Origin: a virus
Lineage: Duplodnaviria; Caudoviricetes
Virus record (IMG/VR): IMGVR_UViG_2885593961_000002
Location: 1 to 64,000 of that record
Direction: 5' to 3' (one strand)
Length of the DNA stretch: 64,000 nucleotides
The number at the start of each line of letters is the position of its first letter. The stretch's first letter is position 1. The position numbers and the translations under genes were made by a program. The notes below the pieces were generated by a model. The model was not told the origin of the DNA. It ran no database searches and saw only the letters and a list, made by a program, of their open reading frames with translations. Shown here one piece after another: positions 1-42,846 of this stretch.

Positions 1-1272
1 ATGCCGCGCCTCCACCACGCGCTCGACGATGTTCAGATCCGACACTGGATCGCCAAAGGGGAACCCGTTGCCAAGGCCGATGGCGACGGCCTGACCTTCA
101 CCCTATCCGGCTCAGGAACCGCGACCTGGGTCCTTCGCTATAGCCGGGGCAACCGCCGCCGTGAGCTGACGATCGGCAACTACCCGGACATGTCGCTTGC
201 ATCCGCCAGAAAAGCTGCTCGCGCGTTCCGAGTCGAGATCGACAAGGGCGAGGACCCTGCCGCTGACAAGAAGACAGAGAAAGCCCGTACCGCCTCCGCG
301 CTGACCGTCCGCCAACTATGTGACGACTACAAGGAAAAGGTGATGGTCAGTCTCGCCGAAGGTTCGATCTACAACCGGAACTGGGATATCGAGAATATGG
401 TGAAGCCGAACCTCGGTTCACTGGAGGCTCGAAAGGTCACGTCGGCCGACATCATCTACATGCTTGAGACCAGTGGGAAATCTTGGAACGTCTGTAATCG
501 TGTGCTGGGGACGGTTTCGATCCTGTTCGACCATGCGATTGGCAAGCGGGTCGTCGAGACCAACCCCACTGCGGGCATTAAGTTGAGAGCATTGCTTGGC
601 GAGCCGCCACCAGTTCGTCAACGACTGATGCTTACTGAGGATGAGCTTAGGGTCTTGTTGCCTGACATCGACGACAAGATCGGTAGCGACAACGGGCTCA
701 TGTTCCGCGTCCTGTTGGCCACGTGCGTTCGCACAAGCGAACTGGTCAAGGCCAGGAAGGAACACTTCGATCTCAAGCGTGGGACGTGGTGGATTCCGCC
801 ACAAAACCTCAAAGCAGGATTCGGCGCGCTCGTACCTCTCGTTCCAACCGTCGTGAAGTGGATCGAGGACTTGATGGCCATATCGGGGGACTCTGAATGG
901 CTCTTGCCAGCGCGGTGTGGCAAGCGACGCAAGCTCGGCGATACTCACATGGGCGTCAAGACGCTGTGGGCCTCCATCTCGCGGGCGTTTGAAAGCAGCA
1001 AGCTTGAGATGCGGTACTTCACTCCGCACGACACACGCAGCACGGCAAAAGGCCACATGAGGAACATGGGCGTCTCGCGGGAAATCAGCGAAATCGCGCT
1101 GAACCACAAAGTGAAAGGTGTAGAAGGGATTTACGACGTGCGGGAGGAGATCCCGGAGAGACGAGCGGCAATGGCGCTGTGGGCAGCCTTCGTGAGTGAT
1201 TGCTGCGAGGGGAAAAATCCGCCGACCGACGTTCAGCCGACGAACGTGCTGCTTTTCAGAAGAGCAAGTTAA
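1..1272 (+). CDS. Tyrosine integrase, P4/IntA-like, with N-terminal Arm DNA-binding domain
   Basis: N-terminus DGDGLTF...TWVLRY...LTIGNYPDMSLASAR; catalytic R (TCVRTSE), HDTR, LNH and GIYD tyrosine all present. Confidence 0.93.
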   Translation: MPRLHHALDDVQIRHWIAKGEPVAKADGDGLTFTLSGSGTATWVLRYSRGNRRRELTIGNYPDMSLASARKAARAFRVEIDKGEDPAADKKTEKARTASALTVRQLCDDYKEKVMVSLAEGSIYNRNWDIENMVKPNLGSLEARKVTSADIIYMLETSGKSWNVCNRVLGTVSILFDHAIGKRVVETNPTAGIKLRALLGEPPPVRQRLMLTEDELRVLLPDIDDKIGSDNGLMFRVLLATCVRTSELVKARKEHFDLKRGTWWIPPQNLKAGFGALVPLVPTVVKWIEDLMAISGDSEWLLPARCGKRRKLGDTHMGVKTLWASISRAFESSKLEMRYFTPHDTRSTAKGHMRNMGVSREISEIALNHKVKGVEGIYDVREEIPERRAAMALWAAFVSDCCEGKNPPTDVQPTNVLLFRRAS

Positions 1273-2495: not shown

Positions 2496-3152
2496 TTACT
2501 TCGGCCCAGCGCTCATTTCGTCGGCCGAATAGAGCTGAAGCATCGCACGTGCGGCCTCGACGTTCTTCGTGTGCAACCACTCGTCGTAGTCGGAAGGTCG
2601 GAGGATCACGACCGACCGCTTCTCGTCGTTCGGTTTGTGCATGCGGGACATGACCGGATGGCCGTCAGCATTGACTGTAAGCATGGACATGCCGATCAAC
2701 GTGCGACCGTCAGCGTCCTCATAGCGCCGCCAAATGCCTGCGACGCAGTACGGTTGCCAATCTGTCAGGCCGATTCGATGCCACACGTTCTTGCCAGTCT
2801 CGTAGCAAGGCTCGTAGACCCAGCGCGCCGGAATTAGACACCTCTGCCCGTCCCGCCATGCCTTGCTATAAAGGCGCGACGTGCCGACCGTTTCCGTCCG
2901 CGCGTTCATGGTATCCAGAGGTCTCTTCTTGCGACCGTTCTCGTCCCGCCGCTCGGGCTGCATGAACTTGGGCCAGAAGCCAAACACGGCTTTGACCACC
3001 TCCAGACCGTCCCCGGCCGCGTAGGCTATCGGGGCACTGTAGTCCGGATACACCTCCAAGTCCCAAGGATCGCGCTTGTACAGGTCGCCGATTCCAATCT
3101 TCAGCTCGCTGATCCCTGGATCTTCGTCTGGCGCACGGTAGTTCGTACACAT
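2496..3152 (-). CDS. yedK: SOS response-associated peptidase (SRAP/YedK/HMCES family abasic-site protein)
   Basis: Start re-placed at ATG 3152 gives the diagnostic MC N-terminus (MCTNY) with GGGGAG SD; NARTET, RCLIPA, EP, H-x-RMH...KRSVVIL motifs. Confidence 0.9.
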   Translation of the reverse strand: MCTNYRAPDEDPGISELKIGIGDLYKRDPWDLEVYPDYSAPIAYAAGDGLEVVKAVFGFWPKFMQPERRDENGRKKRPLDTMNARTETVGTSRLYSKAWRDGQRCLIPARWVYEPCYETGKNVWHRIGLTDWQPYCVAGIWRRYEDADGRTLIGMSMLTVNADGHPVMSRMHKPNDEKRSVVILRPSDYDEWLHTKNVEAARAMLQLYSADEMSAGPK

Positions 3153-3200
3153 GTCGCTCCCCAATTTCAAGACTTGACCAACGCATCTTATCTCGGAATA

Positions 3201-4067: not shown

Positions 4068-4333
4068 CAGCGCGTCTCCTCTGCCCGCATCTCCTGCCAG
4101 CGGATCAAGGTGTCGATCGACTCCTGTATGTCCTTGGTGATGTCCTTCTGGCCACGACCACCGGCAACCAGCAGCTTCTTTACCGCGTGTTGAATGCACG
4201 GATCGACAACGTTGAACAGCTCAAGCACGCGGTACACATCGATACTCGGATACGGGCACGGCTTGTGATAGTGCGCGTGTTTCCGAGGCCCTTGCGGGCC
4301 TTGCGTAGCTGGCGCGGCAAGTTCGGCCATCAT
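4067..4333 (-). CDS. DUF3310-like phage protein
   Basis: HYHK...IDVYRVL...QHAVKKLL..GGRGQKD...DIQES pattern resembles this family; ATG overlaps thyX stop. Confidence 0.45.
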   Translation of the reverse strand: MMAELAAPATQGPQGPRKHAHYHKPCPYPSIDVYRVLELFNVVDPCIQHAVKKLLVAGGRGQKDITKDIQESIDTLIRWQEMRAEETR

Positions 4334-5247
4334 GCCTCGACCTCCCCGCGCTGCGCGACCAGAGCGCGATGCAATCGGACCTCGTCGTTGGTCCACTGCC
4401 GGCGCAGGACGGCAGGAACTTCACCGTCCATCGCGCGGGCCTTCTCGACGTCCTGGCGGTGCTGAAGCCAGCCGTCGAAGTTGCCGCCCTTCTGCGTCGA
4501 CGAGAAAGCCGGCGTCGCTTGGTGCTCGGTCGGAGATGCGTGGATCGGGCGCGCGCCGACCAGCTTAGCGTAGCGCTCGAACTCCTTCGCGTGGCTCGCG
4601 TCGCCGTCAAACGGGTCGTAGGAGATCCGTGCGCAGCGCGCGACGGACAGCTTGATCTGTTCTTCAATCGGCAGCGCCTCGCGCTCAGCCTGGAGGACGT
4701 ATGGCAAGTGCCACTCAGCGATGCGCAACCGGCGCGGCACGCTGACCTCGATCGCGGTCATGATCTCGACGGCCAAGATCTGCATCGTCGGATCGGCGTC
4801 CGGATGGCAGCGCAGTTCGTCGAAGTTGCCCCAGTCGGTCGAGGAAAGCAGGACGTTGATGTACTGGTACGGCTCGGTGACGCGGTTGGCGATTTGCTTG
4901 TGCGCGCCGAGCTTCATGAGCAGCCAGCTATGCAGCGCGGCGAAGCGGGCAGCGCTGCGCCATGTGGCCTTCGCGGCCCACAGACGCCAGCCTTGAAGCT
5001 CCGTTCCTGCCTGCATACCCGGCTGGTTGGTGCCCCACTCCGCGGGACACGCCGGCCGCGACCAGACTTGGCGCAACATGCGACGGATGGGGATAGCGCG
5101 GGAGCTGCCCGCGTTGCGCGAGAACTTGCGGTGCGTCATCAGCTCGCTATGGATGATGCGCGGATACCGCACTTCAACGGTCGTGAGGCGCACGCCGTTC
5201 GAGGCGATCGAATCTTCGATCACCTTGGCCAGAATGATAGGTTTCAT
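4330..5247 (-). CDS. thyX: FAD-dependent thymidylate synthase ThyX (phage type)
   Basis: THRKFSRNAGSSR fits the RHRx7S-type signature; SVARCARISY, HASPTEHQA. Confidence 0.85.
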   Translation of the reverse strand: MKPIILAKVIEDSIASNGVRLTTVEVRYPRIIHSELMTHRKFSRNAGSSRAIPIRRMLRQVWSRPACPAEWGTNQPGMQAGTELQGWRLWAAKATWRSAARFAALHSWLLMKLGAHKQIANRVTEPYQYINVLLSSTDWGNFDELRCHPDADPTMQILAVEIMTAIEVSVPRRLRIAEWHLPYVLQAEREALPIEEQIKLSVARCARISYDPFDGDASHAKEFERYAKLVGARPIHASPTEHQATPAFSSTQKGGNFDGWLQHRQDVEKARAMDGEVPAVLRRQWTNDEVRLHRALVAQRGEVEA

Positions 5248-5294: not shown

Positions 5295-5873
5295 TTACGA
5301 GTTGCGAGCGTCCAGACCGCCCTTGTCCGCGCGCGCTTCAGCGGCGGCATTCGTGTAGGCATCCGGGAAACGCTGCTTCAGCTTCGCGATGTTCGCCGAC
5401 ATGACTTCTTCGAGAGGCATATCGAGCGCGTCGCAGGCATGGGCCACGCCGCTGAGGATGTTTACGAGGCTGCGCATCGCTCCCGTGCGAGCGCGCGCGT
5501 CTTGATACAGCGGCACTTCATACGTGAAGAAGCCGATCTCGACCGAGATGCGATTCGCGACGATCTGGAGCTGTTCCGCGAGCGGTAGCGCGCTCAGGTC
5601 GAAGTCGAAGAGATGCTGGTATTCGGGGATCTCGAAGTCGAGCGCGTCGGCACCGATGGCCACGTACCAGAGAATGTCGCCCAGCTCTTCGAAGATATGT
5701 TCGCGCATCTCCTGCGTGAGCGGCTTCTGATAGGCCCAAAGGCGTTTGACTTCGGTCGTGAACTCGCCATGTTCGGTCGTAAGACCGAGCGATGCGTGTT
5801 GCAGGCGCAGCAGAGAAGTTGCCAGCGGCTTCTCGGTGCGAAGGGCCAGAGGTTTGTATTGTTCGAAGTTCAT
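5295..5873 (-). CDS. mazG: MazG-like nucleoside triphosphate pyrophosphohydrolase
   Basis: LGLTTEHGEFTTEVKR...EELGDILWYVA...NIAKLKQRFPD; start re-placed at MNFEQY. Confidence 0.85.
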   Translation of the reverse strand: MNFEQYKPLALRTEKPLATSLLRLQHASLGLTTEHGEFTTEVKRLWAYQKPLTQEMREHIFEELGDILWYVAIGADALDFEIPEYQHLFDFDLSALPLAEQLQIVANRISVEIGFFTYEVPLYQDARARTGAMRSLVNILSGVAHACDALDMPLEEVMSANIAKLKQRFPDAYTNAAAEARADKGGLDARNS

Positions 5874-5874
5874 T

Positions 5875-6222
5875 TTAGTAAGTCTCGGGTGGTGCGGTGA
5901 ACCAGAGTCGGCGCGACACGGGACGTTCGACGGGCATCGCATACTGGATGATCATGTCGTCGTCTCGAACCTGAACCATCGTGATCAGCCCTTGATCGTG
6001 CTTCTCACGTGCATTCGCCAGAATCCGTTCAAACCTTTCATTCCAGCGGCGTTCCGCGGGGAACTTGCGCGCGATAATGAAGGCGTAATTTCCAGGGTTT
6101 CCCCAGCCGAAGAGTTCCATCTTGTTCATCTCTTCGACGACACGCTCCAGGGTGGTGTCAAGGAACGTCGCGATAAGCTGGGGGGTGAAGTTTTGATCTA
6201 GTAGCGTTTTAATGGACTCCAT
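5875..6222 (-). CDS. Hypothetical protein
   Basis: GAGG SD; tightly packed in the operon. Confidence 0.7.
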   Translation of the reverse strand: MESIKTLLDQNFTPQLIATFLDTTLERVVEEMNKMELFGWGNPGNYAFIIARKFPAERRWNERFERILANAREKHDQGLITMVQVRDDDMIIQYAMPVERPVSRRLWFTAPPETY

Positions 6223-6229
6223 TAATTCC

Positions 6230-8248
6230 TCATGCGGCCTCTTTCAGTGGAAGTGTGAAGATGTGGTCTGCGATCGGACGCTTGTGCGTGACGATGATCA
6301 CCTGCTTGATGGTCTCCTTCAAACGTTGCAGACACTCGGCGGTGTACTGAGCACGCTGCGCATCCATCGACTCGTCGAACTCGTCGGCCATGAAGACGGA
6401 GAACACCCCATTGGTCAGCACTTGACCGAGACCAATCCGGAGTGCGAGATTCGCGACAGCCTTTCCGGAACCGGACAGCGTTTGCACTGCTTGGCCGTCG
6501 ACCGTGATGTTGAAGTCTTCATCCACCACGATCGACGTACGTGCGCCACCAGTCATCTGGTTGAGCAGCACGGACGCTACTTTGTTGAGCGACGGCACCA
6601 GATGCGACTTGATCACGAGCTTCGCTTCCGCTACTGCTGCCTTCGCTGCGGCCTTGTCATCGGCCGCAGCATTCAACGCATCGAGCTTCGCCTTGTCGAT
6701 GCCGTACGCGGCCATCTGCGCCTCGTACGTGCCCACGGCCTGCTCGTAGGCGCGCGACGCGACCAACTGCTCGTCCAGCTTGCTCAGCTCGGCCTCGACA
6801 CCGGCCAGCTCGGCGACGCGCGCCTCGCGCGCGGCCAGCTTCGCGAAGAACTCGTTGTAGCTGAGCACCTGGGCGTGGTGCGCGACGAGCTGGCCTTCGT
6901 ACGCCTGACGCTCTTTGAGGTCATCGCTACGATCGGGCGTGTTGTCAATCGCTTCCTGAAGGGTCTTGACCGATTGCTCGGTCTCGACCAACGATTGCTC
7001 GGCCTCGACGATCTTCGCCTTTTGAGCGTCGATCGCGGTCTGCGTGTCCTGCTTCGTGCGTTCGATGCGCTCACGAAGCTCGACGACCTCCTGCGTGAGC
7101 GCGGCCCGACGCTCAGCGTTGTCGTGCATAGTCCGCTGCGCGTTCAGATCCTTCTGGCTATACGTGGGCGCAGTAGCGTCCGCGTCGGTTACGTCCGCGT
7201 AGGCTTCGAGCGCCGCTGCCGCGATGGGCCAGTGGTGGTCGCAACTCGGGCAGACGTGCGAGCCCTGCCCCAAAAGCTTTTGGCGCTGGCCCCAGCGGAC
7301 GTGCCGCTCGTGAGCCATCTCGAGGAGCACGATTTCGTTGACCGTAAGCGTCGGCTCGACCAGCGTCGCGATCTGCTTCTCGATACGGACGATCTCGCCC
7401 TCCAGACGGCCCACGGTGCCGTCCGTGGTCACTGCCGTGAGTCCGTCTTTCAGACGCTTCAGCGAAGCCCGCTGATCGGCAGCTGCACTCTCCAGCGTAC
7501 CCTTCGCCGAAACCAGCTCACTGCGGGCCGCAATCAGGCTCTGTAGCGTCTCGACGGTTTCGCCAATGGTGCAGGTGGGGACGACCGGCTCGGACGGCTT
7601 GTGGGCCACCATACCGCGCAGCTGGTTCAGCTCGTTGACCAGGGTCGCGACGTTGTCGCGCTTCTGGCCAAGTGTCGTGCTCGACTCGAAGTCGGCTGGC
7701 TGCTCGGGCTTGACCGGCTCCCGCAGCACCGCGGCGACTCCGTCAGCCTGATTGCGGAACGCGAGGGCCTGCTTGCCGAGATCGGTCACGATTTCGTCGA
7801 GCACGTTCAAGCCGATCGTCTGGTCAACGATCTTGCGGCGCTCGGTCGGCTTCGCGTCCGACAGCTTCTCGATCTGGCCTTGCAGTACAGCGTTGGCCAT
7901 CGTGAATACGTCGTAGTCGTAGCCGAACAGCTCGCGGATCTTGGCATTGACCGGCTTCGTGCCCGTAGCGACGTCCTCACCCCCGCGCGTCAGCTTCGCG
8001 TTCTTCGTCGTGCGGACGATGCGGTACGTCTGGTCTCGCACGATGAATTCGAGCGCGACTTCGAGCTTCTTGTAGTCGTCGGCCGCGCCGCGCAGCGCGA
8101 CGCTACCCCACAGCGCGAACAGGATCATCTCAAGCGTGACGCTCTTGCCCGACTCATTCGGCCCCGTGATGGCGGTCTGCCCCACCGGGAAGGCGAACGT
8201 CGAGTTCGGGTGACGATAGCCGTTCTTGATATTCAGGTTCAGCAGCAT
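6230..8248 (-). CDS. sbcC: SbcC/Rad50-like SMC ATPase
   Basis: Walker A GPNESGKS, coiled coils with CPSC zinc hook, signature LSGSGK, Walker B MADEFD. Confidence 0.92.
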   Translation of the reverse strand: MLLNLNIKNGYRHPNSTFAFPVGQTAITGPNESGKSVTLEMILFALWGSVALRGAADDYKKLEVALEFIVRDQTYRIVRTTKNAKLTRGGEDVATGTKPVNAKIRELFGYDYDVFTMANAVLQGQIEKLSDAKPTERRKIVDQTIGLNVLDEIVTDLGKQALAFRNQADGVAAVLREPVKPEQPADFESSTTLGQKRDNVATLVNELNQLRGMVAHKPSEPVVPTCTIGETVETLQSLIAARSELVSAKGTLESAAADQRASLKRLKDGLTAVTTDGTVGRLEGEIVRIEKQIATLVEPTLTVNEIVLLEMAHERHVRWGQRQKLLGQGSHVCPSCDHHWPIAAAALEAYADVTDADATAPTYSQKDLNAQRTMHDNAERRAALTQEVVELRERIERTKQDTQTAIDAQKAKIVEAEQSLVETEQSVKTLQEAIDNTPDRSDDLKERQAYEGQLVAHHAQVLSYNEFFAKLAAREARVAELAGVEAELSKLDEQLVASRAYEQAVGTYEAQMAAYGIDKAKLDALNAAADDKAAAKAAVAEAKLVIKSHLVPSLNKVASVLLNQMTGGARTSIVVDEDFNITVDGQAVQTLSGSGKAVANLALRIGLGQVLTNGVFSVFMADEFDESMDAQRAQYTAECLQRLKETIKQVIIVTHKRPIADHIFTLPLKEAA

Positions 8249-8258
8249 GATGGTGTCC

Positions 8259-9263
8259 TCAAGCAGCGTTCCGGCGTTCTTGATACATCGCGAGCACTTC
8301 GTTCGAAGTCTCAGCGGTGACGTTATGCTTTGTCAGGCAGCGCGACAGAATGTCGACCATGTCAAACGACTCGGTCTGCATGGTGATGTCGACGTACTCC
8401 TCGCCGTTGTCGGCAATCGGCTTCGTCGTCAGTGCCCACGCGTCAACCGGGAAATCGATCTGCTCGCCCGGTTTGAGCAACACGCGCACGGCCACGTCGT
8501 GGAACTGATCAGGCGTAGTAGCGACGACGGCACGCAGCTCCTCCAGAGTGAGCGTGACGTAGCGACTGTCTTTGTCGTTTTCGCCGTGCGCGTATGGTTG
8601 CATCGAGCCGGGGAAGATGAGGCGCACGCCGTTGAGCGTTTCATCGTACGGCCGGTGATCGTGGCCGCTGACGACCAGCTTCGTGAGCGGGCGCAGCTCA
8701 AACAGCGGAACCGCGTTGTGCGGGTTGTCCTCAAACGTGACACGGTCCCAGTGCCCGACGACCAGGTCGAACTCCTTGTAGCCGTCCTCGACCAGCTTGC
8801 GTGCCATATCCTTCGAATTGGTGAAGGGATGCCAAGGGACAACGCCAAGGCGGAAGATGCCGTGCTCGACGATCTGGACGTCATCCTTCGCGATGACGAT
8901 GTTCTCGACGCCGTTCAGCAGCTGGTACAGCAGATCGAACGAGCTACGCTTGTCGGCATCGCGCGAGGCGTCATGGTTGCCGCGTGTGAGGACAAACCAC
9001 GTGTTGGGCCGAGCGCGCGCCGCTTCGCGGTAGGCCGATGCAACGGCCAGTACGATCTCGGGCGGCACGACAAACGTGTCGAAAATGTCGCCGAGGCAGA
9101 TGTTCACATCGACGTCCGCGAACAACGACTCGACGAACTCGTTCATCTGCATGCGCTCGCGCTCGCCCCGACGATCAAGGGGGACACCAGTCAGGAAAGC
9201 ACGACCAAGATGGGGGTCGCCAAGAAAGCCGACCCGAAGGCCGGCGATAGTTTCGATTTTCAT
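8259..9263 (-). CDS. sbcD: SbcD/Mre11-like metallophosphoesterase nuclease
   Basis: GDPHLG, GDIFD, GNHD, GHDH motifs; adjacent to SbcC. Confidence 0.92.
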   Translation of the reverse strand: MKIETIAGLRVGFLGDPHLGRAFLTGVPLDRRGERERMQMNEFVESLFADVDVNICLGDIFDTFVVPPEIVLAVASAYREAARARPNTWFVLTRGNHDASRDADKRSSFDLLYQLLNGVENIVIAKDDVQIVEHGIFRLGVVPWHPFTNSKDMARKLVEDGYKEFDLVVGHWDRVTFEDNPHNAVPLFELRPLTKLVVSGHDHRPYDETLNGVRLIFPGSMQPYAHGENDKDSRYVTLTLEELRAVVATTPDQFHDVAVRVLLKPGEQIDFPVDAWALTTKPIADNGEEYVDITMQTESFDMVDILSRCLTKHNVTAETSNEVLAMYQERRNAA

Positions 9264-21484: not shown

Positions 21485-21700
21485 CTATCGCATCTCGATC
21501 TTCGCGCCGTCCGGTATGTAGCCCACCGGCAGGACAAAGTAGCCCTTGATGACACGAAGCTTTTCCAGCGTCTTCATGGTCCGAACCCAAGCGTCAAGCA
21601 CACGCTCGTGGGTGAAATACTTCGGCTCCATGTGGTTATCCAGGTGGTGGACCTGGATCACCTGCGGCGGATTCAACAAGGTGCCCTTTTCCGATGTCAC
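21485..21700 (-). CDS. Hypothetical protein
   Basis: AAGGAGG SD before GTG. Confidence 0.55.
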   Translation of the reverse strand: MTSEKGTLLNPPQVIQVHHLDNHMEPKYFTHERVLDAWVRTMKTLEKLRVIKGYFVLPVGYIPDGAKIEMR

Positions 21701-22235
21701 GTAGAACCTCCTTTATCAGATCGGGTTGAAAATCGACCATGTACGGGTGATTCATCACGTCCGCAAGGGATCGTGGCTGCGTTACCGCGAGCATGGACTC
21801 CAGCAGCTCGACACATGCCTGCTTCAGTACCGCCATCGCATCGGGATTGCCGCCTTCACTTTCTGTAAGCGTCGGCGGCCCGTTGTCGATGAAGCGCCAA
21901 TGTGTGTAGTTGCAACAAAGCGTGTTGCCGCACTCGTTCACGAGCCTGTATCGGTCGGACTTAGAGACTTCCGGCGTCGCCCACTCGTAGACGATCTTGT
22001 GCACGACTTTCCGCTTCCCTTTACCAACCTTCACAAGCCCGTACGAGGTCACGACCGTGGGCTGGTAGAAAGGAACCATATCGCTTGTTCGAACCATCTT
22101 CAAGCGCGGACCAGCTTTTGTTTTCGCCCCCTTCCACGGCCAGCAGACGTCGAGCTGGCCGAAGTTGTCGATGCGGTCCTTGATACGTGCAACCAGCACC
22201 GCCAGATCGGCCTTACTATCGACGGCCTCAGTCAT
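21636..22235 (-). CDS. His-Me finger (HNH-like) protein, probably degenerate
   Basis: CWPWKG...YG...VHKIVY...CGNTLCCNYTH resembles phage HNH_3; the canonical DH of the HNH motif is not evident. Confidence 0.55.
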   Translation of the reverse strand: MTEAVDSKADLAVLVARIKDRIDNFGQLDVCWPWKGAKTKAGPRLKMVRTSDMVPFYQPTVVTSYGLVKVGKGKRKVVHKIVYEWATPEVSKSDRYRLVNECGNTLCCNYTHWRFIDNGPPTLTESEGGNPDAMAVLKQACVELLESMLAVTQPRSLADVMNHPYMVDFQPDLIKEVLRDIGKGHLVESAAGDPGPPPG

Positions 22236-23130
22236 AGTCAGGGCAACCGTCAGCGATGTATATCGATGCCTTGCCGATCATCTTCTTCGCGTCGCTGATG
22301 ATCTGCTTGTTCACACTCCACGCACCGTGATCGATAACAGCATCGATATGTGACGACACGAGCTGGTCAAGATACTGCGGTGGCAAAGCATCAAGTTCCC
22401 AGCTGGATTCGCCGTACTGGTCGAGATAGGACTTGAACCGAGCATCCGTGGACTTCGCCGGGTTCTCGGGCGGGTTCAGTTCCTCGACTTGAGCCATATT
22501 GAGCGCGATGCGCTTCAGCTCAAACGAGTGCCCGCCGAACATCCGGAGGCGTTCGAGCAAATCGCGCGTCATATCGATCCCACTCGGGTCGTGATCGCCG
22601 AGATGCAGAATGAGACCGCGTTGACCTTCACGCATACTTGGGATGATGTCGCTCAACGCGAACTCGCGCAACACCGTCGACGACGGGTAGCCACGCGCGG
22701 CGAGCAGCGGGGTATCGTAACGATGGCACACACGTTCGAGCACCCCGACGAGAGCTTCTTTCTCGACGATGACGAATACGCGGCGAGATTGACCGATCCA
22801 GAGGTCCTGATGGTACTGGTCCGCGCATGCGTCGATGATCGACGTCGGGGACGTCCAGCGCGAACGGCGAATGAACGCACGCGTTCGATCTTCGAGCATG
22901 TCCCAGTCGATCAGGCCCGCGAGCTTTCCGTCGTTGATGATTGACGCCGCGCGCTTGTACTCCTGCAAATTGTTGGGAATGATGTCGCGAGCGACGAGCT
23001 GGTAATACAGCTGACGCGTGGTCAAGACGTACCCTTGGTTCTGATATTCGCGAACGATGTCGTTGATGATTCCGATCAGTTCGAGGGTAGACGGTTTAAA
23101 CCGCTTCTCCTCATACTTTTGAGTGGCCAT
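22228..23130 (-). CDS. Topoisomerase VI subunit A/Spo11-like protein (WHD tyrosine + Toprim)
   Basis: TTRQLYYQLV, VIVEKEAL, ARGYPS, LGDHDPSG. Confidence 0.7.
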   Translation of the reverse strand: MATQKYEEKRFKPSTLELIGIINDIVREYQNQGYVLTTRQLYYQLVARDIIPNNLQEYKRAASIINDGKLAGLIDWDMLEDRTRAFIRRSRWTSPTSIIDACADQYHQDLWIGQSRRVFVIVEKEALVGVLERVCHRYDTPLLAARGYPSSTVLREFALSDIIPSMREGQRGLILHLGDHDPSGIDMTRDLLERLRMFGGHSFELKRIALNMAQVEELNPPENPAKSTDARFKSYLDQYGESSWELDALPPQYLDQLVSSHIDAVIDHGAWSVNKQIISDAKKMIGKASIYIADGCPDYD

Positions 23131-23213
23131 GCTTTCTCTCGAAAATGTCGAAATAAAAGCCGCATGGCTCAAACCATGCGGCTTCAGTTCGATGAACTAC
23201 TACGCTTCAGCGA

Positions 23214-23624
23214 TTACTGCGACTTCAGCAGCGTCGGTTGGAGCTTGTAGTGCTTCGAGAGGTACGTCAGGATCGCGTCGCCGTGCTCCGCGAGGTTGGC
23301 CAGCAGCTGCTCTTCGGTCGCTGCGACCGGCAGAGCGTAACCTTCGGTGATCACGGTGCCGTCCGCGCCCTTCACCGCCTCGATGTGAACCGGCTTCACG
23401 CCGTGCAGCATGAGGCCAGCGATCTTCTTCAGCGACGTGGTACGCTCGGCGACGAACGCTTCACGGGCCTTCTGCTGCTCCTGGAAACGGGCTTCGTCCG
23501 CGGCCGACCAGTTCGATGCAGCCTTCGGAGCGCCGCGCAGAGCGCGCGGGGACTTGCCGTCGTTGCCGCCCTTGTTCTTCTTCGGAGCAGCGGAGTTCTT
23601 GGTCGTGGTGGTGGTGGGTTCCAT
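23214..23624 (-). CDS. Hypothetical protein
   Basis: AAGGA SD; starts MEPTTTTT. Confidence 0.65.
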   Translation of the reverse strand: MEPTTTTTKNSAAPKKNKGGNDGKSPRALRGAPKAASNWSAADEARFQEQQKAREAFVAERTTSLKKIAGLMLHGVKPVHIEAVKGADGTVITEGYALPVAATEEQLLANLAEHGDAILTYLSKHYKLQPTLLKSQ

Positions 23625-23685
23625 CTTCAATTCCTTCAGGGTTTGTTTTGGTTGAGAGAAGTGATCAGCCTGCCAGGTCGGCCAA

Positions 23686-24066
23686 TCAGGTACGGCCTCT
23701 CATCGACACGGGTAGCAATCCCGCAGCAATGAGATGGTTCAGGACGACAGCCGGCGTGGAGACCGGGAACGTCCTGACACATTCGCTGAGACCCAGTGCG
23801 ATGGCATCGATGGCCTTTTTACGCACGGTCGCAGCTTCAGCTTCGCTGGGTCGCGGGAGGTAAGGCACGAGCGCGCGGCAGATCTGCTCGGCCCGCTCAA
23901 TCAGCCCGTCCGTGATGTCGGTCTCGCTGATGTCGCGATAAGCAAACGTGCTCACGACGGCTTCGACAGACGCCCGCTGATGGGCCTCTACTTCTTCCTT
24001 GCGCGATGCCAGTTCGCGCAGCAGACGCTCGTCGTCGTCCGTCCAGGTTGTGGTGGTGGTGGTCAT
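23686..24066 (-). CDS. Hypothetical protein
   Basis: Starts MTTTTTT. Confidence 0.65.
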   Translation of the reverse strand: MTTTTTTWTDDDERLLRELASRKEEVEAHQRASVEAVVSTFAYRDISETDITDGLIERAEQICRALVPYLPRPSEAEAATVRKKAIDAIALGLSECVRTFPVSTPAVVLNHLIAAGLLPVSMRGRT

Positions 24067-24125
24067 GTCTCAATCCGCGACACAACGACAAGGGCCAGCT
24101 TATCGGTGCATCGGTGTACTTGTCT

Positions 24126-24359
24126 TTACAGGTGACGGTTGTCCGAGATCTCGTTGTTGAAGGCGCGGCCTCGCGCGGTGTTGCCACGCAATGCGAAGGC
24201 ATCCTTCTCGTTCTCGAACTTCTTACCGATGTACTGGCGCAGCTCGACGCCATCCCAATCGGCCGGCATGTGCTCGATGCGCTTCATCACGTCATCCTGC
24301 ACATTCTTGATGAGGTCTTTCACGAACTTTCGTTTCTGTGCTGCCGTTTGCAATGCCAT
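24126..24359 (-). CDS. Hypothetical protein
   Basis: AAAGGTG SD; 77 aa. Confidence 0.65.
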   Translation of the reverse strand: MALQTAAQKRKFVKDLIKNVQDDVMKRIEHMPADWDGVELRQYIGKKFENEKDAFALRGNTARGRAFNNEISDNRHL

Positions 24360-39785: not shown

Positions 39786-42305
39786 TCAAGCGGCGATGGG
39801 CTTCACGCCAGAAGGGGCCGTCGACGTACTCTGCGAACCCGACGATCCCACAAGTGTGAGGTTTTCGTACTGAATCTCCTGCCCACCCAGCTCCGTGTTT
39901 CTGATCGTAAGCTTGAATCCGAACTCGGTAGCCAATTCCCGCATCTTGGCTCTGAACTGCGTCGATCCAACAGGCTTGGCACTTCCCGGCCCTACGCAGA
40001 AGGACCAGTATGTCTGATAGAGCTTCGTTTCCACCACCGAGATGGGGGCTGAACTCCTCGACCCAGCGGATGCCTCCTGTTGGAGAGCGCCCATCCGCAC
40101 CTTGCCACTCTCCGTGAGAAAAAACCGGACACTGTTGTTGAGGTTGGCTACTTCCCGCATGGTCTGCTTATGCGAGTCGGGCAACGTGAACTCGTTGTGC
40201 GCCTTCAACCGGCTCATCGACTGCACGGCCCACGCGACGATAGCTTCACGCTCTTCGACGACAATCACATCACCGAGGTCCAGGCGGCGCTCGGAGGCCT
40301 TCACGGGCCGGTTGAACTGAAGCACGAGCCATCGACGGTTAAACCCCTCGGACGTATCTTCCGTGCGCGGGTAGTGATTCGAGGCGAACCAGTGCGTGCA
40401 GATCGGCCGGAATCGGAAGATCTGCCCTCCCTTCAGCTGCCCCGACATCTCCGCGCCATCGATAATGTCCTTGAAGCGCTGGCCATCAACCAGTTTCTTC
40501 TCGCTCAGCTCGCCCGCGACATTGATGATCTTCTCGAACATCTGAGTCGGCAGGAACTTGTCGGCCCACTCGTTCGGCGGCACCGCAGCGCGCGCGTTGT
40601 CGGGCACAAGCGATTGCGCGATCTTCAACAACTGGCTCTTCCCGGACTTCGGCGCACCCTGGAGCAGCACAGCACGCTGGAAGCGCGGGCCGAGACCGAA
40701 CAACGTGACGGCCAGCGCCTCTTGAATAGCGTCGAGCTTCTGCTGGTAGTCCTCGTCCTCACCCCAGCTCTTCTTCAGGAATTCGAAGAACATCGGGCAA
40801 TTTCCCGAGATTTCCGGCAGGTAACGAAACGGCAACGTATAGATCATGCCGTAGCCGGGGTCGTGATTCAGCAGTTTCAGGTCTTCCGTGAGGAAGCCGT
40901 TCGCGAAGTTCACGCCGCGCACGTCGAGTGTGCGGATACCCTGCGGCAAGATGGTCTTCATCAGGTTGTGAATGCCACGGATGTCGTTGAACTTCTTGCA
41001 CGCCGTCAGATGTCCATAGTCGGCCGAGATCTTCGACAGCACGTAGTTGTCGTCGAGCTTTTCCCAGTGCGAACCGGCCCACTTCCAGAGAAAGCCGTTG
41101 TGCGCGCGCACGGGAAACATCTGCTCAAGGTCCTTGATGACGGCCCGTGCTACTTCCGACTGGTCTTGACCCTTGATCTCACCCATACGCAGCTCTTTGA
41201 TGCGCGCCTTGAGCGAAGAAAGCTTCAGACCCATGCCACCCGACGTCGAAATGAAGTCGAGAATGCGGTCCTCTTCGAGCTTGTTGAGGCTCGACGTCGT
41301 GGCCACCTTGTGCAACGCCTTGTCGATTGACTGGCTGCGCTGCGGTGAATCCTTCGGAAACCGCTCGAATTCATCCAGGAGGAACTGCTTGAGGTCGTCG
41401 AAACCCCACTCTTCCTGCTCTTTCGTGAATTCAAGGCTGTACGCCTGCTTCTCTTCATCGGTCAGACCATCGTCCCAACCGCTCGGCAGCACCTTCTGCT
41501 TATCGTAGACGTCACGGTGCAGGAACTTGATCATGTTCTTGACATGCTTGTCGACGTCGATCGGATCGCCGGCAACGTTCTCGACGAAATCAGCGGCGTA
41601 CGCCTGAAGCATGCCAATCGCCTCCTTCAACGACCGGTCGCCTCGCATAACTGCATACGCGAAAAGGCCAGCGCGCTCCGTCAGCGATGTGTCGCGAGAG
41701 CCGGCCGATGCAAAGTCGACCACGCGCGTCCAACCCGAGTGCGACAGCTCGACGCCAGCCTCCTGCAACGCAGCGCGTAGCATCGACTCGATCTGCTGGT
41801 CGAGCGCCGGCAACATGTGGACGACGTCAACCAGATCGCAGTTCGCCTCGTACGGGCGCTTCGTGTCCGGGTGGATCGACGGCGGCAGTACGGATTGGGT
41901 ACGAGCCGACAGCATTTCGCAGATCGTCTCGCCCGACGTGTTCTTGATACGGAACGTCTTCAGGCCAGTGTACTTGAAGGCCAGCATCATCCCCTTCTTA
42001 CCGATACGACACCAAGGCGACGTTGGCAGCAAGCTCTGAATGATAGACGTCAGCCGCTGGTCGACCGTGTCGATGTCCATCATGACGATGCCCGACTGCG
42101 GGCCGAGCACGATGCCGATGTTTGACGTCGGACACTGCTCAATCCACGCTTGCTGCTGCTCGGGCTCGACCGGATGATCGAAGTAGCGCGACCAATCGTT
42201 CGGGATCGGCTTCTTCTCTTCGGGGTACAGCGGGATAACAGGCAGGCCCTTTGCGTAGTACCTCGGTGCAGTCTGCGCGAAGATCGGTTGACGTTCAGTT
42301 CTCAT
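39786..42305 (-). CDS. Bifunctional primase-polymerase (Prim-Pol) fused to D5-like SF3 helicase
   Basis: GLPVIPL...NIGIVLG...MDID; GSRDTSL; Walker A GAPKSGKS; NRRWLVLQFN; start re-placed at MRTER. Confidence 0.9.
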   Translation of the reverse strand: MRTERQPIFAQTAPRYYAKGLPVIPLYPEEKKPIPNDWSRYFDHPVEPEQQQAWIEQCPTSNIGIVLGPQSGIVMMDIDTVDQRLTSIIQSLLPTSPWCRIGKKGMMLAFKYTGLKTFRIKNTSGETICEMLSARTQSVLPPSIHPDTKRPYEANCDLVDVVHMLPALDQQIESMLRAALQEAGVELSHSGWTRVVDFASAGSRDTSLTERAGLFAYAVMRGDRSLKEAIGMLQAYAADFVENVAGDPIDVDKHVKNMIKFLHRDVYDKQKVLPSGWDDGLTDEEKQAYSLEFTKEQEEWGFDDLKQFLLDEFERFPKDSPQRSQSIDKALHKVATTSSLNKLEEDRILDFISTSGGMGLKLSSLKARIKELRMGEIKGQDQSEVARAVIKDLEQMFPVRAHNGFLWKWAGSHWEKLDDNYVLSKISADYGHLTACKKFNDIRGIHNLMKTILPQGIRTLDVRGVNFANGFLTEDLKLLNHDPGYGMIYTLPFRYLPEISGNCPMFFEFLKKSWGEDEDYQQKLDAIQEALAVTLFGLGPRFQRAVLLQGAPKSGKSQLLKIAQSLVPDNARAAVPPNEWADKFLPTQMFEKIINVAGELSEKKLVDGQRFKDIIDGAEMSGQLKGGQIFRFRPICTHWFASNHYPRTEDTSEGFNRRWLVLQFNRPVKASERRLDLGDVIVVEEREAIVAWAVQSMSRLKAHNEFTLPDSHKQTMREVANLNNSVRFFLTESGKVRMGALQQEASAGSRSSAPISVVETKLYQTYWSFCVGPGSAKPVGSTQFRAKMRELATEFGFKLTIRNTELGGQEIQYENLTLVGSSGSQSTSTAPSGVKPIAA

Positions 42306-42846
42306 TCGAAGACTCTTGTGTGGTGGTGGGCGTAGCGTCATCATCCGAACGACGAGTGGTGATTGCGCTGCGCAAGCGCTCCATGACCTCGGTACGCTGA
42401 TCCGGCGACATGCACTCTTCCATGATGCTCAGTACCGTGTCCTGGAAGTCCCGGATCTGCTTGATCCCCAGTGCGCGCTCCCGAGCTGTCACCAAACGTT
42501 CGAGAAGACTGGTCGCCGTGCGGAAATAAGCCATGCGCTCCGTCTGGTCGGATTGAGGGATGGTCTTTCCGTAGTTCTTGAGGTCGGTGAAGACTCGATA
42601 CAAGTCGATGTCGAGACTCGAATCGATCTGGTCTTCGGTGATCTCGAAATCCGCTATGTCAACCTTCTTCTGCTCAGGTTGAATCTGACGACGGATCAAG
42701 TTCGAGATCACTTTCTTGAATTCAGCACCGTAAGGGCATGCTTCATCGTCGAGGTAGGCCGCGTTCTCCGTGGCCAGGGTAAGGATCATCTTGATCGACC
42801 ACTCCACGTGATCGGTGATGACCGGATAGTGAAAGTCGTTGCTCAT
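42295..42846 (-). CDS. Hypothetical helical protein divergent from terL (possible small terminase)
   Basis: 183 aa; function by position only. Confidence 0.5.
   Translation of the reverse strand: MSNDFHYPVITDHVEWSIKMILTLATENAAYLDDEACPYGAEFKKVISNLIRRQIQPEQKKVDIADFEITEDQIDSSLDIDLYRVFTDLKNYGKTIPQSDQTERMAYFRTATSLLERLVTARERALGIKQIRDFQDTVLSIMEECMSPDQRTEVMERLRSAITTRRSDDDATPTTTQESSNEN

Follow-up and report, generated by a model that had tools for sequence, protein, structure and literature searches.

The Mini-A gene and its place in the provirus

The stretch of DNA analysed here (the window, 64,000 nucleotides, positions 1 to 64,000 of the IMG/VR provirus record IMGVR_UViG_2885593961_000002) encodes on its minus strand, at 22228..23130, a protein of 300 residues (P0001), translated from a stop-free frame. 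The protein is made of an N-terminal winged-helix (5Y-CAP) domain, spanning about residues 10-90, and a Toprim domain (about residues 109-265), followed by a C-terminal helix. Its translation contains R39-Q-L-Y42-Y43-Q-L, in which the codons for R39 to Y43 (23002..23016, minus strand) form an RxxY/FY motif, identified from the homologue alignment and from the description of this motif in PMC7671362, with Y43 (23002-23004, minus strand) as the presumed catalytic tyrosine. In the Toprim domain, V122-E123-K124-E125 includes the metal-binding glutamate E123 (22762..22764, minus strand), and G178-D179-H180-D181-P-S-G184 includes the metal-binding DxDxxG motif (D179 to G184, 22579..22596, minus strand), both supported by translation and homologue alignment. 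The same two sources place an exact WELDAL sequence, known as the T2BI box, at W244-E-L-D-A-L249 (22384..22401, minus strand), directly preceded by S243. The motifs on which the initial annotation had relied (RQLYYQL, VEKE and DHD) are all found within a single intact ORF.

The ATG at 23130 is favoured as the start codon because the alignments with homologues, close as well as distant, begin at residues 1-6, while the longer frame that starts with TTG at 23172 would collide with a terminator-like hairpin. This putative element (23148..23185, minus strand) follows the upstream ORF (23214-23630), precedes the Mini-A ATG by about 25 nt, and consists of a 13-bp stem and a 4-nt loop, followed by UUUUAUUU. 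RNA folding yielded -31.3 kcal/mol (z -2.9), none of 200 shuffled sequences folded as well, and the inner part of the hairpin was also detected in a pattern scan. On the other side of the gene, a 199-residue ORF (21636..22235, minus strand) begins with an ATG that overlaps the stop of Mini-A by 8 nt. In its N-terminal half, the product resembles HNH-type endonucleases (PHROG 1872, 'endonuclease', E 2e-11); tblastn matches to it were found in six close and two other loci (n=80), and it is a lineage-specific gene, not a general partner of Mini-A.

The record carries integrase, terminase, portal, capsid and tape measure genes and corresponds to a siphovirus-type provirus of a temperate phage; the closest relatives of its proteins occur in Burkholderia. 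The attribution of the locus to a phage was thus correct, the phage being an integrated one. Its replication genes encode a PrimPol-helicase, PolA, a FEN-like exonuclease, a ligase and a SNF2 helicase. Mini-A is surrounded by small phage ORFs, in addition to the HNH-like gene, and occupies a variable part of the block of early and DNA-metabolism genes. This became apparent from the comparison with a sister provirus, G052, which is 100% complete according to CheckV and syntenic from integrase to capsid. Both proviruses share PolA at 72% identity, SbcC at 59% and SbcD at 76%, and the sister has retained the replication module in full along with SbcCD, yet it lacks Mini-A together with its five flanking small genes, as well as the 199-residue HNH-like ORF. 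In the place of Mini-A it contains a cassette made of a 391-residue ORF and small ORFs, for which no PHROG, Pfam or Atlas lead was obtained. Mini-A therefore sits in a replaceable cassette and is dispensable for this lineage of Burkholderia phages, and it is only for this lineage that the sister provirus demonstrates a non-essential role.

Family membership, conservation and predicted fold

The gene is a typical member of an already known family, Mini-A, described by Takahashi, Da Cunha, Krupovic, Mayer, Forterre and Gadelle as virus-borne, stand-alone homologues of the A subunit found in type IIB topoisomerases (PMC7671362). According to that report, Mini-A proteins are about 300 residues long and consist of the latter half of the 5Y-CAP domain and a Toprim domain; they display the RxxY/FY motif, in which the catalytic Tyr is preceded by Y or F and by an Arg four residues before, and which they share with Topo VI, the E and DxDxxG Toprim motifs, and the WELDAL box. 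This C-terminal T2BI box, which reads xWELDAL in Mini-A and RVELNAM in Topo VIII, sets the family apart from Topo VI as well as from Topo VIII, and the carriers described are free or integrated viruses, the element being devoid of a B subunit with the Bergerat (GHKL) fold (PMC7671362). P0001 displays the expected length and all of these sequence signatures, and it is encoded by a provirus without a B subunit. Membership was established not only from the signatures but also by direct homology to named members: tblastn matched P0001 to a gene of Salmonella phage BP12C (64% identity over 95%, E 3e-120) and to one of Achromobacter phage JWF (59% identity over 100%), both of which are Mini-A entries in Table S2 of PMC7671362. 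The protein also matched PHROG 6247 ('DNA topoisomerase') with an E-value of 9e-122. The initial annotation was hence right in labelling the gene as Topo VI-A/Spo11-like, but it did not identify the published Mini-A family. Likeness to the published Mini-A proteins is full, and the differences lie in the host lineage (a Burkholderia provirus) and in the position within a variable cassette. The family is large, with 7022 clusters at 50% identity. No GenBank phage was matched by megablast when the surrounding 4 kb served as query, and neither NCBIfam nor PADLOC contained a match for P0001 or its two neighbours.

The alignment of 271 Mini-A homologues revealed an almost complete conservation of the candidate catalytic residues: Y43 is kept in 270 sequences, R39 in 268 and D179 in 270, and E123, K124 and D181 are present in all 271. 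The WELDAL box is nearly as constant (W in 263, E in 267 and D in 267 of the 271). Such retention indicates that the motifs noticed at the outset are not due to chance. One homologue, P0173, bears an intein-like insertion immediately ahead of the VEK motif. Comparison with four close relatives yielded dN/dS values of 0.04-0.13, showing that the gene is under strong purifying selection. Taken together, the near-invariant catalytic residues and these low ratios suggest that P0001 is most likely an active enzyme that cleaves DNA covalently, and not a decoy. Pfam analysis of 23 longer homologues revealed one fusion to DUF1643 (P0202), one weak zinc-ribbon and no fusion to an ATPase. No report on the biochemical activity of any Mini-A protein was found in the literature searched, and a review from 2024 still refers to the role of Mini-A as unexplored.

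The relationship to Topo VI-A and Spo11 becomes visible at the level of the predicted structure. The AlphaFold model of P0001 (pLDDT 95.5, pTM 0.88) retrieved Topo VI-A 1d3y (chain 1d3y_B) as the top Foldseek match, with an E-value of 1.6e-5 and a probability of 1.00, followed by the Topo VI-A structures 9o8p, 2q2e and 2zbk and then by MksG (8b7f), Spo11 (8urq) and JetD (7til). When the Toprim part (residues 109-265) was compared (VIA), 1d3y_B gave a Z of 11.5 over 143 residues (rmsd 3.1), compared with 10.6 for MksG and 8.8 for Spo11 (8uru_A), so that in the Foldseek and the VIA search alike Topo VI-A came out ahead of MksG and JetD. Superposing the whole chains with Foldseek gave a poor fit to Topo VI-A (TM of about 0.37 and rmsd of about 17 A), which suggests that the two domains may be arranged otherwise than in Topo VI-A. 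Judging from the model, the fold of the cleavage core is shared with Topo VI-A and Spo11, and the claim of a winged-helix tyrosine combined with a Toprim domain in a Topo VI-A/Spo11-like protein has been borne out by the Foldseek comparison that had been proposed as a check. At the sequence level the distance is considerable: Pfam TP6A did not match P0001 at E <= 1, phmmer found no match among PDB sequences, and a profile built from 78 homologues retrieved no Topo VI chain from the PDB sequences, its only hit being a chance one to a phage neck appendage protein (E 0.6). The sole Pfam signal was DUF2399 (E 0.045), which at 14 bits falls below the cut-off of 23.4.

With Topo VI-A and Spo11 (1d3y, 2q2e, 2zbk and 9o8p; 8urq/8uru), P0001 has in common the same two-domain fold and the same set of catalytic Tyr, Arg, Glu and DxD residues. 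It differs from them in lacking a Top6B/Top6BL partner and a TP6A match, in having the WELDAL box, and in its N-terminus, which is about 60-100 residues shorter; the part of the 5Y-CAP that binds the B subunit is described as absent from Mini-A (PMC7671362). P0001 is devoid of the GHKL/transducer moiety of Topo VIII and reads WELDAL where Topo VIII has the RVELNAM box. These Topo VIII proteins are reportedly plasmid-borne type IIB enzymes with fused or split B and A moieties. JetD and MksG (7til, 8b7f), nuclease subunits of the Wadjet/MksBEFG plasmid-defence systems, resemble P0001 in having a Topo VI-A-like Toprim domain and no GHKL ATPase. These two proteins cut DNA hydrolytically and are not known to have a conserved tyrosine. 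In contrast, P0001 is encoded outside any jetABCD or mksBEFG operon, has no PADLOC match and belongs to a family in which the Tyr is invariant.

Candidate partners: GHKL proteins, neighbouring genes and SbcCD

The initial annotation had noted that no GHKL ATPase accompanies the gene, and this absence extends well beyond the window. Pfam detected no GHKL domain among the 89 predicted proteins of the 78.4-kb provirus record, and a six-frame search with PF13589 and PF02518 was negative in all 51 virus records carrying Mini-A, that is, the present one and 50 others. A partner of any other type was sought in the gene content. Mini-A is present in each of 35 near-complete genomes of Mini-A phages and the next family, a SNF2 helicase, in only 15 of them, so that no other gene family is common to most of these genomes; families were clustered with blastp-fast at E 1e-6, and a fast-evolving partner would be missed. 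Likewise, when the 68 proteins of the window were compared by tblastn with 80 viral loci, only Mini-A proved general, all others being found in at most eight. All-against-all clustering of the ORFs in the 80 loci gave non-overlapping clusters no larger than 14 of 80, with no conserved adjacent gene; those seen at offset 0 arise from Mini-A itself, read in alternative frames. The PHROG class of DNA metabolism accounts for the nearest upstream ORF in 15 of 71 loci and for the nearest downstream one in 19 of 69, and these neighbours in other phages include ligase, Sak4-like annealase, helicases, PolA and exonucleases (directly downstream, Sak4-like in 7/69 and exonuclease VIII in 1/69).

An SbcCD pair does exist in the window, as had been pointed out. 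The SbcC-like gene (6230-8248, minus strand) matches PHROG 77 (E 7e-55) and Pfam SMC_N/AAA_23, and the SbcD-like gene (8259-9263, minus strand) matches PHROG 100 (E 3.7e-20) and Pfam Metallophos; both are about 13 kb away from Mini-A, with roughly 20 ORFs in between. The proposal that the pair and Mini-A act as specific partners was accompanied by the suggestion to examine their co-occurrence across phages, and the co-occurrence turned out to be weak. Of 50 virus records with Mini-A, 15 have a firm SbcC-like match (E <= 1e-9), and these matches concentrate in the large records (11 of the 15 that reach at least 70 kb, compared with 4 of the 35 smaller ones), indicating that the presence of SbcCD tracks genome size rather than Mini-A. 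Phage BP12C (G002), a named Mini-A carrier, has no firm SbcC-like match, an SbcC-like protein is the nearest upstream neighbour in only 2 of 71 loci, and the sister provirus keeps SbcCD without Mini-A. A set of loci anchored on the PolA of the window, intended as a control for a 2x2 table of SbcC and Mini-A, contained six members, too small a number for statistics, but the informative sister provirus G052 came from it. The specific partnership is thus unsupported, and it could still be the SbcCD of the host that acts on breaks made by Mini-A.

Possible roles in phage DNA replication and recombination

The reading that integrates these observations, and which we consider highly probable as a whole, is that the provirus encodes a Mini-A protein, a stand-alone, putative DNA-cleaving enzyme. 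Within this reading we favour an accessory role in the replication or recombination of phage DNA, the protein representing neither an essential replication function nor one half of a dedicated two-part machine with SbcCD. By analogy with Topo VI-A and Spo11, Mini-A would sit on duplex DNA as a dimer, assumed to act in trans, in which Arg39 would position Tyr43 for the attack on the DNA backbone and E123, D179 and D181 would hold Mg2+. A 5'-phosphotyrosyl covalent intermediate would result, and no ATP-driven strand passage would be needed. From this intermediate two outcomes can be envisaged: the break would be resealed, so that replicating phage DNA is relaxed or unlinked independently of ATP, or a protein-capped break would be left for recombination. 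Judged from sequence, Mini-A may be a nuclease or may reseal in the manner of a topoisomerase.

Several other explanations have to be weighed against this one. The initial annotation envisaged a Spo11-like maker of double-strand breaks whose products would be uncapped and resected by the phage's own SbcCD, resembling Mre11-Rad50, for recombination-dependent replication or for the destruction of host or competitor DNA. Mre11-Rad50/SbcCD can process protein-capped DNA ends; moreover, SbcCD and Mini-A lie on the same strand and in one early block of the provirus, the residues for covalent catalysis are invariant across the family, and the two loci with an upstream SbcC-like gene and the Sak4-like or exonuclease VIII genes found downstream in some lineages point in the same direction. 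The 35 of 50 records without a firm SbcC-like match (a figure that depends on record size), the lack of such a match in BP12C, the 13 kb between both genes and the retention of SbcC and SbcD by the sister provirus make this explanation unlikely. Slightly less probable still is a replication initiator, in which the Tyr of Mini-A would nick the origin and prime rolling-circle or sigma replication. This idea was put forward in print for skuldviruses of Asgard archaea, which are described there as having no other replication gene (bioRxiv 10.1101/2021.07.29.453957), and it was repeated in 10.64898/2026.02.13.705702; the conserved covalent tyrosine chemistry and the location of Mini-A inside the replication cassette of two P2-like proviruses (L018 and L019) would agree with it. 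However, in these same two proviruses Mini-A adjoins a protein of PHROG 91 ('nicking at origin of replication'), implying that an initiator nickase is already present, and the provirus studied here has a replication module of its own, from PrimPol-helicase to SNF2 helicase, which the sister maintains in the absence of Mini-A.

An equally small probability is assigned to a true type IIB topoisomerase whose ATPase or clamp partner would come either from the host or from another place in the phage genome, in the latter case as a non-GHKL 'Mini-B'. The catalytic core of the A subunit is complete, and the possibility is kept open in the discussion of such a partner in PMC7671362; nevertheless, no GHKL domain emerged in the 51 records, no family besides Mini-A exceeded 15 of the 35 near-complete genomes, and the 80 loci had no conserved adjacent gene. 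Least probable of all, and in our opinion very improbable, is a hydrolytic Toprim nuclease of the JetD/MksG kind, or a mimic of it, devoted to the degradation of host DNA or to counter-defence. In favour of this notion, MksG and JetD are among the structural matches and DUF2399, the sub-threshold Pfam signal, is the C-terminal family of JetD. Yet Topo VI-A outranks both, PADLOC gave 0 families at E <= 1, no jetABC-like genes are nearby (the only protein with an SMC fold is the distant SbcC, paired with SbcD), and the family has preserved a Tyr and an Arg, neither of which a purely hydrolytic nuclease would need.

The existence of the family, along with its motifs, its occurrence in viruses and the missing B subunit, was published in 2019/2020 (PMC7671362). 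To this, the present analysis adds that no comparably conserved family accompanies Mini-A in 35 near-complete genomes, that SbcCD presence follows genome size instead of Mini-A, and that in this type of Burkholderia phage Mini-A is located in a replaceable cassette. A far-reaching proposal, which we regard as improbable, is that Mini-A represents the counterpart of Spo11 in prokaryotic viruses: an ATP-independent dimer that would introduce programmed, protein-capped double-strand breaks into the DNA of the phage or the host, to be uncapped by the Mre11-Rad50-type SbcCD of the phage or, mostly, of the host, for recombination-dependent replication. If it were true, a stand-alone A subunit would be ancestral to the type IIB enzymes. 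The general question to which these observations relate is what a universally conserved, stand-alone cleavage core of the Spo11/Topo VI-A type does across thousands of phage lineages.

A member of the Mini-A family

The Mini-A gene (22228-23130, minus strand) is an unbroken ORF of 300 codons, and its translation, P0001, contains the motifs R39-Q-L-Y42-Y43-Q-L, V-E123-K-E and G-D179-H-D181-P-S-G, all three already recognized in the initial annotation, as well as W244-E-L-D-A-L249 near the C-terminus. Translation probably begins with the ATG at 23130, because the alignments of homologues to P0001 begin at residues 1-6 of this frame. An alternative TTG start, at 23172, is less likely, as it would fall within a strong hairpin. 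The plus-strand ORFs overlying the gene (e.g. 22489-22944) recur in relatives, but solely as shadows, in another frame, of this conserved gene. The hairpin, terminator-like and located at 23148-23185 (minus strand), has a 13-bp stem followed by UUUUAUUU and lies ~25 nt 5' of the Mini-A start codon; therefore, either Mini-A is transcribed through read-through or antitermination, or the hairpin represents the 3' end or a processing site of the upstream transcript.

The comparison of P0001 with Pfam yielded DUF2399 alone, below threshold (E 0.045), and that with PDB sequences gave no match, while PHROG 6247, denoted 'DNA topoisomerase', spanned the protein end to end (E 9e-122). Its nearest named protein relatives are Burkholderia hypothetical proteins (83-95% identity). 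Tblastn detected relatives in 81 GenBank phage records, with at least 80% query coverage in 73 of them, the best, 64% identical across 95% of the query, being that of Salmonella phage BP12C; the relative in Achromobacter phage JWF showed 59% identity over 100%. Takahashi et al. (PMC7671362) define Mini-A by an RxxY/FY motif, a Glu plus DxDxxG, and a C-terminal WELDAL box, describe its genes as virus- or provirus-encoded, lacking a 'Mini-B' and of unknown function, and include BP12C (60,606 bp) and JWF (81,541 bp) among the carriers in Table S2. P0001 displays all of these hallmarks and, because the BP12C and JWF records matched by tblastn are those in that table, its membership is direct: it is an ordinary member of an already published family. 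This family is very large, with E <= 1e-3 reached by 7022 clusters at 50% identity and E <= 1e-30 by 994, and all except 5 of 8000 scored 90%-identity clusters match.

Predicted fold and active site

An AlphaFold2 model of P0001, built on an alignment of 78 diverse homologues, reached a mean pLDDT of 95.5 and a pTM of 0.88. Foldseek against the PDB placed Topo VI-A at the top (1d3y_B, E 1.6e-5), followed by 9o8p, 2q2e, 2zbk and 9o0g, with the MksG nuclease (8b7f, E 2.6e-4), the Spo11 core complex (8urq/8uru) and JetD (7til) interleaved with and beneath the Topo VI-A entries. A Foldseek-independent search with VIA superposed residues 109-265 onto 1d3y_B (Z 11.5; 143 residues, rmsd 3.1), with lower scores for MksG (Z 10.6) and Spo11 (Z 8.8), and residues ~10-90 resembled generic winged-helix domains. 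The proposal of a Topo VI-A/Spo11-like fold was correct. Over the whole chain, TM-scores reach just ~0.37 (rmsd ~17 A), so that in the monomer model the two domains appear to be placed differently with respect to each other than in the Topo VI-A crystal forms.

Conservation was evaluated in an alignment of 271 homologues (P0001, 120 relatives at the 90%-identity level and 150 from 50%-identity clusters). E123, K124 and D181 were kept in all 271, Y43, R84 and D179 in 270, and R39 in 268; the non-conserved cases at R39, Y43 and R84 stem from gaps in the alignment, and the sole sequence without Y43, P0242, is an N-terminally truncated fragment. The Trp, Glu and Asp of the WELDAL box were kept in 263, 267 and 267 sequences, respectively, the four lacking Glu and Asp having gaps at those columns. 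The dN/dS of the gene against four close relatives was 0.04-0.13. In one homologue (P0173, 677 aa), an insertion of ~370 aa, with Cys first and His-Asn then Cys last, immediately precedes the Toprim motif W-V-E-K; it matched no Pfam family at E <= 0.001 and appears intein-like, as would be expected of an intein lodged in an active site. Another homologue (P0202, 457 aa) carries a DUF1643 domain fused N-terminally to Mini-A (Pfam E 7.6e-23); in the scan of the 23 longer homologues, no other domain fusion exceeded the cut-off of its Pfam family.

The provirus and its Mini-A cassette

The provirus record (78,431 bases, 96% complete by CheckV; the window being bases 1-64000) shows, in PHROG and Pfam scans, the gene layout of a temperate siphovirus. 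The integrase (1-1272, plus strand) is followed by a long minus-strand early and DNA-metabolism block that includes SRAP, a thymidylate-synthase-like protein, MazG, SbcC (6230-8248), SbcD (8259-9263), a DEDD exonuclease, a RecU-like resolvase, an ATP-dependent ligase, PolA, a FEN-like exonuclease, an SNF2 helicase, a PrimPol-helicase (39786-42344) and many small ORFs, and the structural genes (terminase, portal, capsid, tape measure and tail) run from 42839 on the plus strand. The SRAP gene (SOS-response-associated peptidase, of the abasic-site crosslinking family; 2496-3170, minus strand) lies close to the integrase end. The thymidylate-synthase-like protein (4330-5247, minus strand) matched PHROG 85 at E 8e-67 and no Pfam family at E <= 0.001, and adjoins the MazG-like pyrophosphatase gene (5295-5942, minus strand); both could form a divergent pyrimidine-modifying enzyme pair. 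The tape measure protein (54102-59960, plus strand) is very long, 1952 aa, and carries an internal endolysin-like segment (residues 1107-1516, PHROG 1044), and a radical-SAM protein (L002:6566-7915) is found among the tail-fibre genes. Two genes at the far provirus end, encoding a PAAR-domain protein and the type VI secretion amidase effector Tae4 (L002:14889-16096, record bases ~76889-78099, outside the window), are likely to be cargo or flanking host DNA.

A sister provirus, G052 (L208-L212; 81.8 kb, 100% complete by CheckV), shares synteny with the window between integrase and capsid, with identities of 59% for SbcC, 76% for SbcD, 72% for PolA, 81% for PrimPol and 84% for MCP. No Mini-A match was found in it, nor any match to the flanking ORFs, so that a six-gene cassette (o71, HNH-like, Mini-A, o138, o126 and o77; 21485-24359) lacks a counterpart; G052 holds instead, at L209:3623-6118, an ORF of 391 aa that is unrelated, along with small ORFs, without PHROG, Pfam or Atlas matches. 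Therefore, Mini-A in this phage type is part of a replaceable accessory cassette. The HNH-like member (199 aa, 21636-22235, minus strand), restricted to the lineage of the window, has an 8-nt overlap with the Mini-A stop (ATGACTGA); the resemblance to HNH-type endonucleases (PHROG 1872) is in its N-terminal half, and its last 80 residues have no assignment.

Candidate partners and likely role

The absence of a GHKL partner noted in the initial annotation was borne out, as Pfam revealed no such ATPase among the 89 predicted provirus proteins, and six-frame searches with PF13589 and PF02518, both of which matched in 14/14 control genomes, gave none in 51 virus records (50 with Mini-A and that of the window). 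Of the viral loci with a match, at least 581 in number, the best 80 (48-98% identical to P0001) were compared for their neighbourhoods. When 68 window proteins were searched by tblastn, Mini-A was present in 80/80 loci and every other protein in at most 8; when the ORFs of these loci were clustered, the largest non-overlapping neighbour clusters spanned 14 loci. The nearest same-strand ORFs within 400 nt (71 upstream and 69 downstream, excluding three near-duplicates and two loci without an intact ORF) were heterogeneous in PHROG scans. DNA metabolism accounted for 15/71 and 19/69, respectively, including ATP ligase (4), Sak4-like annealase (7), SbcC-like genes (2), helicases, PolA, thymidylate synthases, HNH endonucleases and P2-type replication genes; the ligase and most Sak4-like neighbours adjoin copies 53-54% identical to P0001, the tblastn band of PaMx25/NP1-type Pseudomonas phages. 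At the whole-genome level (34 near-complete Mini-A records plus that of the window; 9,989 ORFs), Mini-A occurred in 35/35 and, its frame shadows aside, the next families were SNF2 helicase (15/35), PHROG 69 exonuclease (13), head protease (12), primase (12) and PolA (11), so that Mini-A has no companion gene of similar conservation, in a clustering (blastp-fast, E 1e-6) that a fast-evolving or host partner would escape.

A Mini-A/SbcCD pairing had been suggested from the presence of both SbcC and SbcD genes in the window, which is indeed the case. A six-frame search with PHROG 77 matched 18/50 Mini-A records at E <= 1e-3 (16/42 of those at least 90% complete), 3 of the 18 being marginal (E ~1e-4), and firm matches (E <= 1e-9) remained in 15/50 (14/42), one SbcC-like match occurring in JWF and none in BP12C. 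Because firm SbcC was present in 11/15 records of at least 70 kb vs 4/35 smaller ones, its presence follows genome size and lineage. Furthermore, G052 keeps SbcC and SbcD without Mini-A, so SbcCD in this phage type is independent of it. A specific partnership is thus not supported, a lack of phylogenetic co-occurrence being what the initial annotation itself had named as refuting a dedicated pairing; the use of host SbcCD would be compatible with these results.

No report of Mini-A activity was found in the titles, abstracts and passages available, and a 2024 review (PMC11894792) calls its role unexplored. The only functional hypothesis found in print in these sources is rolling-circle initiation, put forward for skuldviruses (10.1101/2021.07.29.453957) and repeated in 10.64898/2026.02.13.705702. 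In this provirus such a role is unlikely, because the element has a full replication module of its own, and because two P2-like proviruses of 30-33 kb (L018 and L019) hold Mini-A with a gpB-like 'replication initiation protein' on one side and a 759-aa PHROG 91 protein ('nicking at origin of replication') on the other, implying that Mini-A coexists with a classical origin nickase. As to the chemistry, JetD is among the structural matches to the model, but that the tyrosine is kept alongside the Toprim triad points to covalent chemistry of the topoisomerase/Spo11 type and makes a nuclease that is purely hydrolytic, as in JetD, less likely. Considering conservation and predicted fold, it is most likely that P0001 would act as a dimer, without ATP, carrying out Tyr43/Mg2+-dependent covalent DNA cleavage as an accessory to the replication or recombination of phage DNA.
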